A stretch of DNA of 11,023 bases from a virus. Of the stretch, positions 3,625-10,997 are shown piece by piece (position 1 is the first letter of the stretch; each line of letters opens with the position of its first letter). The DNA is taken from UHGV virus genome UHGV-0053823. One strand, written 5' to 3'. The notes beneath the pieces were generated by a model. That model was not told the DNA's origin, did no database searches, and saw nothing but the letters and a program-made list of their open reading frames with translations. Both the position numbers and the translations under genes were made by a program.

Positions 3625-3957
3625 TCACTCTCCTTTGATGCGAATGCCAGCGACGCGTAGTGCGTGTTCTAAGTCAATCAGGCAAAGCCAACTGCCATTT
3701 TCTTTAGGTATCATGACATGCCGCTTATCAGCATTTATTGGGTGCCCATATCGAAGGTCGTAGCGAGTCGGTAATTGAACTTCCCTCGCTTCCAGTTCTG
3801 CAATGTGTTTGTTTTTAGCTTCTAGTTCATCCAGCAGCGCCAGCACAACCTGCGGTGTGACTTTCATACGAAATGCCAGCAATTTTTGTGGTGTGGCTAC
3901 TATTTTTATTGCTTCTGCCGCCTCACGCAGTGCCTGATAGTTAATTTCGGTTGTCAT
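3625..3957 (-). CDS. Ead/Ea22-like protein (short form)
   Basis: 110-aa ORF with ALREAAEA and VVLALLDELEAKNKHIAELEAR coiled-coil motifs typical of Ead/Ea22-like early proteins. Start overlaps the upstream stop (ATGA). Confidence 0.6.
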   Translation of the reverse strand: MTTEINYQALREAAEAIKIVATPQKLLAFRMKVTPQVVLALLDELEAKNKHIAELEAREVQLPTRYDLRYGHPINADKRHVMIPKENGSWLCLIDLEHALRVAGIRIKGE

Positions 3958-4832
3958 GCCACCACCTCTTCGAATTTCAACTCCAATTGATCACCCCAGA
4001 TTTCACATGATTCGGAACACGAACCAGTATCAAACCGCCTGGCTTGCACCATCGCCTGATACAAATTACTGTAGTCACTGTCGGCATACATTCTGGCAAT
4101 CCCGTCAAGCGTCAGGTGGCCACGGTACATAACGTCTTTTCCTGTTCTGCGATGACCATCCCTGACGTGTTTGCCTGTAACCAGTTCATTAAAAAACCGC
4201 ATCAGACCAGGTTCGTCTTTACATGCAAGCCCCAGCTTTTGCGTTGACTTTTTGATGCAGAAAACACAGTTCCCGAGGTGCTCTGGGATTTGCAAATCAA
4301 AAGGTTGTGCTCGCCACCACCGGATAACATCCGACTTATCAAAATGTGACAGTTCGGCAAGATACCGGACGCCCGGTTTCGGTTTCAGCCTACGGTGTTC
4401 GTCCGCACGAATACCCAGCCATGTGATGTAATTCCCTCGTCCGAAATGGTCATCGCAATATTTCGTGAAAGGGGTGAGTTTTAGCCTGTCAGTACAGAAC
4501 GCGCCGCCGATGTATGGCGTGCCGTACTTTTTAACCATATCCATAAACGGTTTAAGCACCGGCATTCGCGTCTGAATATCCTTTGGTTCCCATTCCGTAT
4601 AACTATTTGGCTGCCCAAGCTCTGGATTTATATCGACCTGCAACACGGTTAGTGGAATATCCCAGAACTTCACGACTTCCCGAATAAATCGGTATGTCAG
4701 CGGGTGTTCACATCCCGTATCCATGAATATGTAATGAACGTTTTCACCTGCCTTTCTGCGTTGCTCCATAAGGTGAACGAGATACGCCGATGTACGACCG
4801 CCTGAAAAACTCACAACATGATGAGCGCTCAT
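3954..4832 (-). CDS. PAPS reductase-like / PP-loop ATP pyrophosphatase family enzyme
   Basis: 292-aa ORF with N-terminal PP-loop motif VVSFSGGRTSAYL and C-terminal cysteine pairs (NCVFC, GSCSESC) suggesting a metal or Fe-S site. ATG start at 4832. Confidence 0.7.
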   Translation of the reverse strand: MSAHHVVSFSGGRTSAYLVHLMEQRRKAGENVHYIFMDTGCEHPLTYRFIREVVKFWDIPLTVLQVDINPELGQPNSYTEWEPKDIQTRMPVLKPFMDMVKKYGTPYIGGAFCTDRLKLTPFTKYCDDHFGRGNYITWLGIRADEHRRLKPKPGVRYLAELSHFDKSDVIRWWRAQPFDLQIPEHLGNCVFCIKKSTQKLGLACKDEPGLMRFFNELVTGKHVRDGHRRTGKDVMYRGHLTLDGIARMYADSDYSNLYQAMVQARRFDTGSCSESCEIWGDQLELKFEEVVA

Positions 4833-4961
4833 TTCTTCGTCTCTTTATGGGGGATTAAACTGGCGGTAAGCTGGAATTGCCGGATGCTCACCCGTGTCCG
4901 GCGCACGTCCTCCACCTCACCCGTGGAGAACTCCTTAACCACAACCCCTAAGGAGGGTGAA

Positions 4962-5183
4962 ATGGATCAAAATGAAAAAATTAAAATCGCATTTCTTGCC
5001 GCTTCAAACGCCACGGCTTTATTTATTAACACTCCGCACTATCGCCAAAAATTAGAAGAAAAGCCGGGACTAAAGAAAACAACAATGAACCCAGAGTTCA
5101 TTTTTAAGAACGAATTTAGTCTTCACATGAAGCGCCTTTCTGAAATTCTAAATGCTCATCAAGCCAGTCCAGATCGGGATTGA
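4962..5183 (+). CDS. Hypothetical 73-aa protein on the opposite strand (candidate moron)
   Basis: ATG at 4962 preceded by a near-perfect SD (TAAGGAGGgtgaaATG, 5-nt spacing). AT-rich coding sequence unlike its flanks. The 3' end overlaps the 3' end of the convergent 187-aa gene by 68 nt. No recognisable domain. Confidence 0.35.
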   Translation: MDQNEKIKIAFLAASNATALFINTPHYRQKLEEKPGLKKTTMNPEFIFKNEFSLHMKRLSEILNAHQASPDRD

Positions 5184-5679
5184 TACGCACCAGTTCGAGT
5201 GAATATTCCATGGCATCCCTGGCGTACTCTTTCGGGATGCCATTTTCTTCAAGAATATCCTGAACTTTCTGGCGAATAACCGGAACCAGGAAAAGAAGTT
5301 TTGTTTCACGATTGCCAAGTAGTTCTTCCAGATCGCGCGTAGCCTCTTCCAGATCGCGCGTGGCCTCTTCTGGATAGCGATTGCCCGGTATTGATTCCTG
5401 CGAATTATTCAGTCTTTCAACAGAATTAATTGATTTATCGTTTTCTGTTATATTGCGTTTGATGTTTTGTTGACCTTTATTAAGGCAGCAATTTTGAATA
5501 TGGTCCTTGTGCTTTTCATTATCATAAGCATACAGCCCGACAAAAATATCCCGCAAGTTTCGGGAGATATTTTCCAGATTCGCCTTTGGTTCTTTTCTTA
5601 AATCAACCACCGATAAATGAGCTTTAAGCGTATCCGCAGCTACTTTCTGAATGTCCTCGGGTAAATCTTTAAATTGCAT
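5116..5679 (-). CDS. Hypothetical 187-aa protein with an internal EATRDLE tandem repeat
   Basis: ATG start with GAGGA SD 8 nt upstream; AT-rich, charged, probably helical protein. No family recognised. Confidence 0.55.
   Translation of the reverse strand: MQFKDLPEDIQKVAADTLKAHLSVVDLRKEPKANLENISRNLRDIFVGLYAYDNEKHKDHIQNCCLNKGQQNIKRNITENDKSINSVERLNNSQESIPGNRYPEEATRDLEEATRDLEELLGNRETKLLFLVPVIRQKVQDILEENGIPKEYARDAMEYSLELVRINPDLDWLDEHLEFQKGASCED
5325..5379. repeat. In-frame 21-bp tandem repeat (two units plus a degenerate third) inside the 187-aa gene
   Basis: CTTCCAGATCGCGCGTAGCCT followed by CTTCCAGATCGCGCGTGGCCT (1 mismatch), then a partial third unit CTTCTGGATAGCG. Encodes the repeated EATRDLE heptad on the minus strand. 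Confidence 0.8.
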
Positions 5680-5755
5680 AATATATCCTCATAGAACGGT
5701 GTATTTTCTCGTGAAATGTGAGCGATATGTCGTGACGTCCCTGTCACAGATTTCA

Positions 5756-6577
5756 TCAGACTGAGAATGTGCCGATGAAGGTTAAGATATCTGCTTCTTC
5801 GAAACGCTCTTTCAGCAGGTCACGGAACTCTTTGGCAATTTCTTCTTCCGCAGCTTCAATGCGCACGATACGTAGTACCAGAACAGGTTGCTCGCTGGTC
5901 AGAATACTTAGACGCAGGGTGAACTCACGGTTGCTCAGGCCCTCGAATGGGATGCATTCAAAGCGGAAAGTGGCAGGCATGATTTCCTTACTTTTAGCCT
6001 CCACTGATTCCATAACTGAGCGGCTACCGCTGAAGTTTTGTTCTTCATATTCAGCACTGCGTTTTGCATCGATAGTCAGACGACGGACAGCAGAGATAGC
6101 CTGTTTGATATCCAGTACATTACCGTCGCTGTCATAGGCCGTGAGGAAGTCGGCCCAGTCTTCCAGCCATTCAGCGAGAGATTTCTGGAGTTGTTTTTTG
6201 CCGTCCACGTCACGTAATGCGCGATATGGTGATGTGGCTTTCAGTTCCAGCAGTGCCTTGTTGTCAGCATGTCCTGGTTGATCCAGAGTGCCGATATTGA
6301 ACACAGTGACCGCTTTCATCGTTTCCGCGTTAATGAAGCAACGAGAGAACCCATCGACATAACCTTTGCTGTATTCAACAAAGTCATCAATACTGGTTGT
6401 GGTCATGACTCCACGGAAACGAAAGCGTTCTGTCATGAATCGCTCCAGACTTTCAATATTTACATTGTCCGGCAATAACGTAACGGGGCATTCCGTAAGC
6501 GGCAAATTTTCACCAGAAAAAGCAGTAGTGGTGAGCTTTACAATTTCTTTAATGGCATTGCTATCTAACTGAGACAT
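5756..6577 (-). CDS. Hypothetical 273-aa phage protein (size and context reminiscent of YfdQ/DUF2303; unverified)
   Basis: Long ORF with ATG start and a weak SD; non-repetitive sequence. Family assignment is tentative, based on length and on being downstream of a roughly 115-aa gene as in the yfdP-yfdQ pair. Confidence 0.6.
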   Translation of the reverse strand: MSQLDSNAIKEIVKLTTTAFSGENLPLTECPVTLLPDNVNIESLERFMTERFRFRGVMTTTSIDDFVEYSKGYVDGFSRCFINAETMKAVTVFNIGTLDQPGHADNKALLELKATSPYRALRDVDGKKQLQKSLAEWLEDWADFLTAYDSDGNVLDIKQAISAVRRLTIDAKRSAEYEEQNFSGSRSVMESVEAKSKEIMPATFRFECIPFEGLSNREFTLRLSILTSEQPVLVLRIVRIEAAEEEIAKEFRDLLKERFEEADILTFIGTFSV

Positions 6578-10187: not shown

Positions 10188-10832
10188 TTAAAGATTAACG
10201 TTGAAACCAAAGCGGGAAGATTTTTCCGATGTACGGGAAATATCCAGCAATTTACGGCGCATTTCTTCCGTCAGATGTTTGAAAGCGTTAAATTCGGCAA
10301 CAGCGGCGTCAACGTTATAGCCCTTGCTGTGTAGTTCGTTGAGGATGCGCATAGTTGGGCTTGGCATATCGAAGAGCACGGAAGCATCAAGGCTGATAAC
10401 TTTGCGATCAACATAATTCATCGTGGCGTAGGGGTGATGCTCAGAAAACCACGATAAAGGGAAATTGATGTTCATCGCAGGAGAAGACAGGGCCAGTTGT
10501 TTCTGTTCCCATAGTTGTTTTTCCATGCGATCGAATTCAGCGATGTAGGCTTCTTTGAAAGCTGCGGCTTTTTTACCAGTGAATCCCATTACCAGGAAGA
10601 CGAAGCCGTTTTTGGTGATTTGATAGGCGTTATAGGTATTACCCCGGTGTTCGAATTTAACCCGCGAAAAGTTGCTGGTTAAGAATTGTTCAGAGCATTC
10701 AAGGGATTCTATTTTCTGAACAACATGGTGATGCTGCTTCTCAAAGAACTCTGCGATGTCAATTGACGTAGTGATGGCATTGCCGTTTTCAATAGTTACG
10801 GATGGGCGAGAAAGGGGAGATATAGTAGCCAT
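10188..10832 (-). CDS. Phage regulatory protein, Rha family
   Basis: 214-aa ORF from internal ATG 10832 preceded by a consensus SD (AAGGAGG, 9-nt spacing). N-terminal domain ITTSIDIAEFFEKQHHHVVQKIESLE ... YQITKNGFVFLVMGFTGKKAAAFKEAYIAEFDRMEKQL matches the Rha domain. Confidence 0.75.
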   Translation of the reverse strand: MATISPLSRPSVTIENGNAITTSIDIAEFFEKQHHHVVQKIESLECSEQFLTSNFSRVKFEHRGNTYNAYQITKNGFVFLVMGFTGKKAAAFKEAYIAEFDRMEKQLWEQKQLALSSPAMNINFPLSWFSEHHPYATMNYVDRKVISLDASVLFDMPSPTMRILNELHSKGYNVDAAVAEFNAFKHLTEEMRRKLLDISRTSEKSSRFGFNVNL

Positions 10833-10997
10833 GGTGGCAGCCTCCTTGATTGGTGATTGATAACCACCGCCGGAGGTCCTAAACTCGCTGGCGGTGGACT
10901 GTACAGGGTTAGGACTACTGGCAATCAAGGGAACCAGCCCGACCGAAGTCGGCCCCATACAGCCCACCATTGATAAGATGTGCGTGCATGTCGATAC

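Follow-up and report, generated by a model that had tools for sequence, protein, structure and literature searches.

Is a 73-codon open reading frame (ORF) that runs against all of the annotated genes around it a real gene and, if so, what might it be doing there? The question is raised by UHGV virus genome UHGV-0053823, a stretch of 11,023 nucleotides which is referred to here as the window. In it the ORF (product MDQNEK...SPDRD; see Table 1 for the coordinates of all features) overlaps, tail to tail, the 3' end of a minus-strand gene for a protein of 187 amino acids (aa). An earlier note on this DNA had drawn attention to a near-ideal Shine-Dalgarno (SD) sequence, a five-nucleotide spacer and ATG, to the overlap of 68 nt, and to two repeats and a short stem further upstream, and it had raised the possibility of antisense regulation between two mutually antisense genes, or of one of the two calls being wrong. 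The SD, spacer, start and stop codons and the overlap are all present in the sequence as described. The annotation pipeline PGAP leaves the ORF out of three identical complete genomes, whereas PHANOTATE, a generous ORF caller, annotates it in phage phi367, and the exact 73-aa sequence is called on 109 contigs. Variants of the protein include an A19V allele, an allele with another C-terminal tail, and an allele truncated by the insertion sequence IS1.

The homology search proposed in the earlier note produced one true relative of the product, the 68-aa hypothetical protein P0002 of Salmonella enterica, found in an exhaustive phmmer scan of 1.84 billion representative proteins (E 3.9e-9). The two proteins share 46% identity over 71 columns (pairwise E 3e-19), and P0002 starts at a Met aligned with the 4962 start. 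The codon-aligned DNA of the two genes is 61% identical, with proportions of synonymous and non-synonymous differences (pS and pN) of 0.69 and 0.32 and a ratio of the corresponding rates (dN/dS) of 0.22. In the 48 aligned codons which overlap nothing in either genome, dN/dS is 0.18 (pS 0.71, which is near saturation, and pN 0.30), with 28 of the 55 differences at third positions. Because the ratio is low, including in the non-overlapping codons, this comparison indicates that the ORF is a genuine translated gene under purifying selection, and that the near-ideal SD marks a true translation start. We also considered whether residues 57-73 were mere antisense read-through resulting from a recent recombination, and ruled this out as the Salmonella homologue conserves HMKRL..IL past the junction.

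The longest version of the frame begins at ATG 4818 (121 aa). ATG 4962 is nevertheless the correct start, because the Salmonella homologue begins at the equivalent Met and the positional analogues described below begin directly after the same SD. Counting both strands of the 11-kb window, there are just two places at which a strong SD is followed by a start codon, and an open frame of at least 73 codons is found in dinucleotide-shuffled sequence with P = 0.033. The ORF is also AT-rich, as the earlier note had remarked in likening it to acquired genes, with a G+C content of 0.378 compared to 0.476 for the window (the lowest 3% of 222-nt windows), and it does belong to an acquired mosaic segment (see below).

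No match to the 73-aa product was found in Pfam, PHROGs, NCBIfam or PADLOC, and a word-indexed search of 5.8 billion proteins returned only a truncated variant of the product itself. GTDB species representatives and JGI metagenomes were scanned with DNA and with peptide patterns and yielded nothing, so that the homologue came to light in the exhaustive phmmer scan alone, and a literature search by protein accession was likewise negative. The protein is predicted to be small, soluble and helical: AlphaFold2, run without an alignment, placed helices at residues 3-22, 25-33, 35-38 and 44-67 with a predicted local distance difference test score (pLDDT) of 75, and the maximum 19-residue hydropathy is 1.11, with no membrane-like segment in this or any other protein encoded at the equivalent position in related prophages. 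The model has no structural neighbour in the PDB, and profile searches of PDB sequences returned noise only.

The ORF proved to be one of a set of small ORFs found in the same slot behind the same leader element. We scanned IMG/VR for the leader and analysed 217 loci, 126 of which contain both of its hairpins. Eighty-nine of these 126 are Qin-like, in that the ydfC stop follows directly and there is neither an SD nor a plus-strand ORF; in the remaining two-hairpin loci the leader runs into AGGAGGGTGAA and then the ATG of one of seven ORF variants. The AGGAGGGTGAA box therefore stands directly before the start codons of six small-ORF variants other than the one in the window (63-92 aa; five further unrelated classes). 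As MST91 and MGF91 are homologous, the seven variants make up six classes (MDQNE73 in the window, MST91/MGF91, MLK77, MTQ69/MTQ63, MTS73 and MDKKQ92), between which BLASTP found no similarity. A distant homology of the class containing the window protein and P0002 (W73/P0002) to the MTQ class, suggested by a shared M-T/D-x-E-E-K start, was rejected, likewise for their partner modules, with hhalign probabilities of 5% and 0.6%. The probability that each slot ORF is open by chance ranges from 0.001 to 0.03, or about 1e-13 jointly across the independent classes. Within-class dN/dS was 0.30 and 0.17 in the two classes tested, and PGAP annotates several slot ORFs of other classes.

All of the slot cassettes are AT-rich (35-42% G+C), and all of the variants overlap the 3' end of a mosaic minus-strand gene, by 11, 23, 23, 32, 32, 41 or 68 nt. 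The convergent overlap recurs in relatives, being 29 nt in Salmonella and 11-41 nt in the six other cassette variants, and we reject the suggestion that one of the two opposing calls is wrong, since both genes have homologues and the convergent arrangement recurs in each of these cases. The slot lies between the conserved leader and that part of the minus-strand gene, also conserved, which codes for the N-terminus. In most classes this gene has a MEFKDLP-type N-terminal domain followed by exchangeable C-terminal modules.

The partner gene in the window shares this construction. The N-terminal domain of the 187-aa protein (aa 1 to ~80, MQFKDLP...) matches phrog_1363, 9419, 2151, 6937 and 33007, and aa 107-184 match phrog_25397. 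Within the latter region lies what we refer to as the EENGIP module, which is 47% identical (E 2e-15) to a stand-alone 68-aa protein encoded on the minus strand in Salmonella, and both of these match phrog_25397. In the Salmonella locus (L220) the P0002 gene lies opposite the early-left operon of a Rac-like prophage and overlaps this convergent 68-aa gene, which adjoins a repressor gene. Because the two genes are arranged tail to tail in both phages and have diverged to a similar degree (46% and 47% identity), we conclude from these alignments that the 73-aa gene and the EENGIP module are a co-conserved convergent pair, and the same comparison indicates that the pair has moved between differing upstream contexts and hosts. 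The MTQ class likewise co-diverges with its partner module (47% identity for the ORF and 53% for the module).

Several other loci bear on this pairing. In L223 the ORF cassette is joined to a second allele of the module which is like that of JNEC-KY176. In JNEC-KY176 itself (L126) the EENGIP module is fused to a further module and there is no plus-strand ORF; what is left is hairpin 1 of the leader alone and, in antisense, a remnant of the ORF's final 17 codons. The earlier note had held that relatives with an intact minus-strand gene and a disrupted ORF would count against the ORF, and formally this is one such case, although with the minus-strand gene extended; it shows the ORF to be dispensable rather than spurious. 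In the E. coli genome GCA_012587855.2 (L222, 2501-3358) IS1 has inserted into the ORF after codon 36, with loss of everything beyond this codon and of the entire 187-aa gene. The truncated product corresponds to database entries P0001, P0006 and P0009, and P0001 and P0006 could therefore be dismissed as examples of a disrupted ORF beside an intact minus-strand gene, because the IS1 insertion deleted the 187-aa gene as well.

We note that the M(E/Q)FKDLP early gene family is strongly mosaic, judging from the minus-strand genes beside the slot in L003, L004, L126, L217 and the IMG/VR loci, with a ~55-aa N-terminal domain joined to many alternative middle and C-terminal modules. Some of these modules are also found as stand-alone proteins, and the family covers at least six PHROG families, none of them with an assigned function. 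In the 187-aa protein, the linker contains a perfect-length 21-bp tandem duplication, CAGATCGCGCGT(A/G)GCCTCTTC, at 5330-5371 on the minus strand, which encodes EEATRDL-EEATRDL. The structural model of the 187-aa protein was unusable (pLDDT 41), and K-12 YdaF was tried as a homologue of the MEFKDLP N-terminal domain and rejected as not homologous.

The ORF is rare: of 5426 complete E. coli genomes, 3 contain its DNA (4940-5130), each at 100% identity. The segment which carries the leader, the ORF and the 187-aa gene is identical to that of strain 2013C-3033, whereas the flanking PAPS-reductase and yfdQ sequences differ from those of this strain by 66 mismatches. As the segment is identical between carriers whose flanks differ, we conclude from this comparison that it is a recently exchanged mosaic, and that the ORF is a horizontally mobile accessory gene. 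Close relatives such as L126 and L217 are without the ORF, and the latter represents the common arrangement in Stx phages, including many Stx2a (Shiga toxin 2a) phages, with hairpin 1 only and a different C-terminus of the minus-strand gene.

The repeats and stem of the earlier note were confirmed and belong to a far more widespread conserved element, the leader. The window has exactly two copies of CTCACCCGTG, at 4887 and 4916, one in each hairpin loop, and the CTCCAC/GTGGAG stem forms the second hairpin. A leader query matched 3191 of the 5426 complete E. coli genomes (~59%), mostly over the core at 4866-4938, and this two-hairpin element carries the same motif, CACCCGTG, in both loops. In the K-12 Qin prophage (L002, BW25113, 3001-3073) the same leader sequence is located just downstream of ydfC, between ydfC and dicB in the dicBF operon (ydfC-dicF-dicB), in what has been described as a long, dicF-containing untranslated region (PMC5069750). 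The Qin locus differs in having no SD or plus-strand ORF at the site, and the window contains no DicF according to Rfam. No described function for the leader element was found in the literature.

For the plus strand, RNAalifold predicted 11 bp for hairpin 1 (HP1), 6 bp for hairpin 2 (HP2) and a pairing of CUCCU with AGGAG of the SD, and a single-sequence fold of the window likewise paired CUCCUUA with UAAGGAG. On the minus strand the U-G and G-U pairs of HP1 would be mismatched. The folding z-score amounts to only -1.8, and we treat the leader structure as a hypothesis derived from these models. A pairing of the loop (UCACCC) with GGGUGA after the SD was considered and is unsupported, as loop variants such as CTGACCC are uncompensated. 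Rfam gave no match at 4750-5250 even at E <= 5, and identity of the leader with the small RNAs (sRNAs) AgvB, AsxR, Pas or DicF was ruled out on this basis and because the Pas sRNAs are found in the late region. Since most loci have the leader conserved but carry no ORF, the leader must also serve a role independent of the ORF, which could lie in the leftward transcript or be that of a recombination linker at the DNA level. A 37-aa ORF with a GTG start on the minus strand (4829-4942) also spans the leader, has an ATGA overlap with the PAPS-reductase start and is called by PHANOTATE in phi367; it is probably non-coding, as judged by eye from the frame, which is not maintained in Qin-type sequences.

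The window represents the leftward early operon of a Stx-type lambdoid prophage. Positions 4700-5800 are 100% identical to three complete E. coli chromosomes and 3954-6577 are identical to phage vB_EcoP_phi367 (Sepvirinae, genus Oslovirus). The PGAP-annotated genes are all on the minus strand and, from high to low coordinates, encode a Rha-family regulator, a cell-division inhibitor, gamL, recT, exo and yfdQ, followed leftward by the 187-aa gene, a PAPS-reductase family gene and an ea22-like gene. No terminator-like site was found on the minus strand between the 187-aa and PAPS-reductase genes (5116 to 4832), and leftward transcription must therefore run antisense through the whole of the ORF and not just the 68-nt overlap. 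The antisense regulation raised in the earlier note remains a plausible possibility. A terminator-like hairpin inside the N-terminal coding region of the 187-aa gene could mark the end of a plus-strand transcript ~370 nt past the ORF stop.

Elsewhere in the window, Rfam identified a single match, a full-length C4 antisense RNA (RF01695) at 10887-10974 on the minus strand (78.9 bits, E 1.5e-14). C4 is an antisense RNA family of P1/P7-type immunity systems. The match and the long ORF (10188-10970) of the Rha-family regulator overlap at the 5' end of the latter, in which a strong SD (AAGGAGG, 10841-10847) and an in-frame ATG (10830-10832) are found 46 codons downstream. From these positions, the annotated start of the regulator may be too far upstream, and this may be a Stx-type prophage with a c4/ant-like RNA-controlled module.

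Table 1. Coordinates of the ORF, its leader, its partner gene and associated features in the window.
Feature	Position	Strand	Characteristics
73-aa ORF (MDQNEK...SPDRD)	4962..5183	+	73 codons plus TGA at 5181-5183
SD TAAGGAGG	4949..4956	+	GTGAA spacer (5 nt), then ATG 4962
Convergent 3' overlap of the 73-aa ORF and 187-aa gene	5116..5183		68 nt, tail to tail
187-aa early gene (PGAP hypothetical protein)	5116..5679	-	N-terminal domain, linker and C-terminal module
EENGIP partner module	5143..5310	-	aa 124-179 of the partner (187 aa); conserved jointly with the 73-aa ORF
Leader element	4866..4961		HP1, HP2, anti-SD-like CTCCTTA and SD
HP1	4879-4884 / 4897-4902		GCCGGA / TCCGGC; longer on the plus strand through G-U pairs
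HP2	4910-4915 / 4923-4928		CTCCAC / GTGGAG
Anti-SD-like CTCCTTA	4931-4937		
Candidate promoter	4844..4872	+	TTTATG-17 nt-TAAGCT; weak, with a putative start at ~4879, the foot of HP1
Terminator-like hairpin	5549-5575	both	TCCCGCAAGTTTCGGGA, then a T-rich tail; inside the N-terminal coding region of the 187-aa gene
Exchanged mosaic segment	4696..5875		Leader, ORF and 187-aa gene; 100% identical to strain 2013C-3033

The position of the gene invites comparison with sieB of lambda, P22 and the K-12 Rac prophage, which is also an opposite-strand gene in a leftward early operon that converges on an early gene (in Rac, sieB on the plus strand and ydaF on the minus strand are convergent with a 4-nt overlap). 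Approximately 350 bp upstream of the Salmonella homologue (L220 3565-3915) are ~80% identical to the kilR-sieB spacer of K-12 Rac (L219 7488-7840), and because this homologous DNA precedes sieB in Rac, the alignment places the Salmonella homologue in the sieB position. It also suggests a conserved non-coding function for the ~350-bp spacer between kilR (or a rha-like gene) and the sieB position, for example as the promoter or leader of the opposite-strand gene or as a long 5' untranslated region of kilR. The sieB gene has a promoter of its own, from which it is expressed in the lysogen. We would point out that this likeness is one of position only and not of family membership. SieB is a 162-aa, strongly hydrophobic protein (maximum hydropathy 2.19 for Rac SieB) in contrast to the 73-aa protein, which shows no similarity to SieB in Pfam or NCBIfam and has no SieB-like protein among its database matches, and the slot in the window lies downstream of exo/recT and upstream of the ea22-like gene rather than beside the immunity region.

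Our preferred explanation, for which we would put the chances at about even, is that the ORF is an accessory gene placed antisense in the early operon, expressed in the lysogen, silenced on induction, and acting on the partner module. By analogy with sieB, a weak promoter of its own would drive the 73-aa gene in the lysogen, where the early operon is repressed, and on induction, leftward early transcription would cross the ORF antisense and shut it off by transcriptional interference and RNA duplex formation. We infer this pattern of expression and silencing because of the sieB-like position and because prophage accessory loci have been described as characteristically lying antisense to lytic genes (PMC7067206). 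The folding models suggest that the SD might in addition be masked through pairing with the leader CUCCUUA. What the product would most likely bind or counteract is the C-terminal module of the convergent partner, or else the corresponding protein in a superinfecting relative, and the two would then form an inhibitor/target pair specific to the prophage state.

A number of observations weigh against this explanation. Co-inheritance of genes ~400 bp apart could reflect linkage alone, and the searches of Pfam, PHROGs, NCBIfam, PADLOC and the PDB gave no family, defence-system or solved-fold match. Pairing is not obligatory, as MST91 and MTS73 share one minus-gene body and JNEC-KY176 keeps its extended minus-strand gene without the ORF. 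The candidate promoter is the best sigma-70-like sequence upstream of the ORF, yet it scores at background level (6.9 compared to 7.4 +/- 2.5) and a consensus promoter scan found nothing at 4844-4872; the homologous position in Qin-type loci (TTTTCA-17-TAAACT) scores 10.5. No plus-strand terminator was found close to the ORF stop, the leader shows no compensatory double changes, and it is conserved in those 89 of the 126 two-hairpin loci that have no SD or plus-strand ORF.

The alternative which survives best, and which we regard as possible while doubting it, is that the ORF is an independent moron, with a role for example in superinfection exclusion, defence or anti-defence, whose overlap results from genome compaction and whose partner module co-travels by linkage. 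Morons and accessory loci such as lambda bor and lom and ST64B STMMW_20121 share with it a deviant base composition, a variable presence in close relatives and an antisense orientation, and a free-standing gene would agree with the pairing of one minus-gene body with the two unrelated ORFs MST91 and MTS73, with the occurrence of the EENGIP module without the ORF in L126 and the fact that phrog_25397 is longer than the module, and with a slot which is positionally equivalent to sieB and filled by AT-rich cassettes in every case. Classical morons have a recognisable promoter and terminator of their own, and nothing convincing of this kind was found at the ORF. The unrelated cassettes here share one leader and SD and overlap their partner gene, which is no part of how morons are defined. 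Against this alternative, two independent classes keep their partner module (~45-50% identity) across contexts and hosts, which exceeds the expectation for a freely recombining region.

A second alternative, which we judge unlikely, is a toxin-antitoxin-like or abortive-infection pair, in which the early minus-strand gene would encode a C-terminal module harmful to the cell, and the plus-strand protein, produced continuously in the lysogen, would counter leaky or invading copies. Small gene and module show co-conservation, the IS1-disrupted allele lost both genes together, and the combination of a conserved N-terminal region, exchangeable C-terminal modules and a co-varying small neighbour gene recalls polymorphic toxin/immunity cassettes (CdiA-CT/CdiI and Rhs-CT/RhsI). 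In these systems, however, the partner lies downstream on the same strand and not in a convergent orientation, and the proteins encoded here are small early-operon proteins (68-260 aa) with no secretion, delivery or recognisable toxin domain and a pairing which is not strict. Type II toxin-antitoxin systems are similar in the co-conservation of both genes, but form co-directional, autoregulated operons rather than convergent genes, and no significant match to a toxin, antitoxin or defence family was found in Pfam, NCBIfam or PADLOC; the persistence of the module without the ORF in L126 is a counter-example to the co-conservation. Type I systems of the txpA/RatA type, in which a non-coding antisense RNA opposes a small hydrophobic toxin peptide, do not fit, as there is no hydrophobic segment or peptide here and both strands encode conserved proteins.

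It is also conceivable, though rather improbable, that the plus-strand locus functions mainly as a cis-antisense RNA with the leader as its core, controlling the stability or read-through of the leftward operon, and that translation of the ORF is secondary. There is a precedent in the OOP RNA of lambda, which lies antisense to cII at its 3' end and is believed to regulate this gene (PMC7067206); as here, the convergent units lie in the early region of a lambdoid phage and overlap at their 3' ends. Over its entire length the ORF is complementary to the transcript of the operon. Thousands of genomes conserve the leader, even where the ORF is missing, and the G-U pairs in the upper stem of HP1 form on the plus strand only, with one-sided changes which keep the pairs. 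OOP is nevertheless a short non-coding RNA, whereas both strands here encode conserved proteins, and protein-level conservation with saturated synonymous sites is inexplicable by an RNA-only role. The strong SD is kept in six unrelated classes and lost exactly where no ORF follows, and neither the folding z-score nor the lack of covariation in the leader supports a role for the RNA alone. Finally, that the ORF is spurious, a chance open frame opposite real genes, can be strongly disfavoured despite its absence from the PGAP annotation of three identical genomes, the lack of a family match and its being called only by PHANOTATE (in phi367), given a homologue with dN/dS of ~0.2 in the 48 aligned codons overlapping nothing, an SD and start position common to six other ORF variants, and a chance-ORF probability which is 0.03 alone and falls to the joint value given above when the classes are combined.

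The finding that the reference annotation misses this gene is of wider interest, as the ORF represents a class of small prophage proteins without known function. Our comparison suggests that prophages of the Qin, Rac and Stx types, including the Shiga-toxin phages, have an accessory-gene exchange hot spot in their early-left operons, which is characterised by one conserved leader and ribosome-binding site, many small ORFs unrelated to each other, a mosaic early gene that these overlap tail to tail, and partners that co-diverge. Going further, the leader and slot might constitute an undescribed 'expression platform' of lambdoid prophages, with a structured 5' leader and SD-masking hairpin at a position where over half of the complete E. 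coli genomes have the element at least in part. Highly diverse small-protein genes would be exchanged there along with the convergent early gene's C-terminal module, as cognate inhibitor/target pairs for exclusion or abortive infection, and since the two halves of a pair face each other in transcription, they would be expressed in mutually exclusive prophage states; we offer this as a speculation which is more likely to be wrong than right by a wide measure. Should the inhibitor/target reading be false, a corrected annotation and a documented mosaic junction would still stand. If inhibitor/target pairs are indeed switched by convergent transcription, this would be a new architecture for prophage exclusion or defence, and it would provide a function for a conserved element in the long untranslated region of the K-12 dicBF operon.

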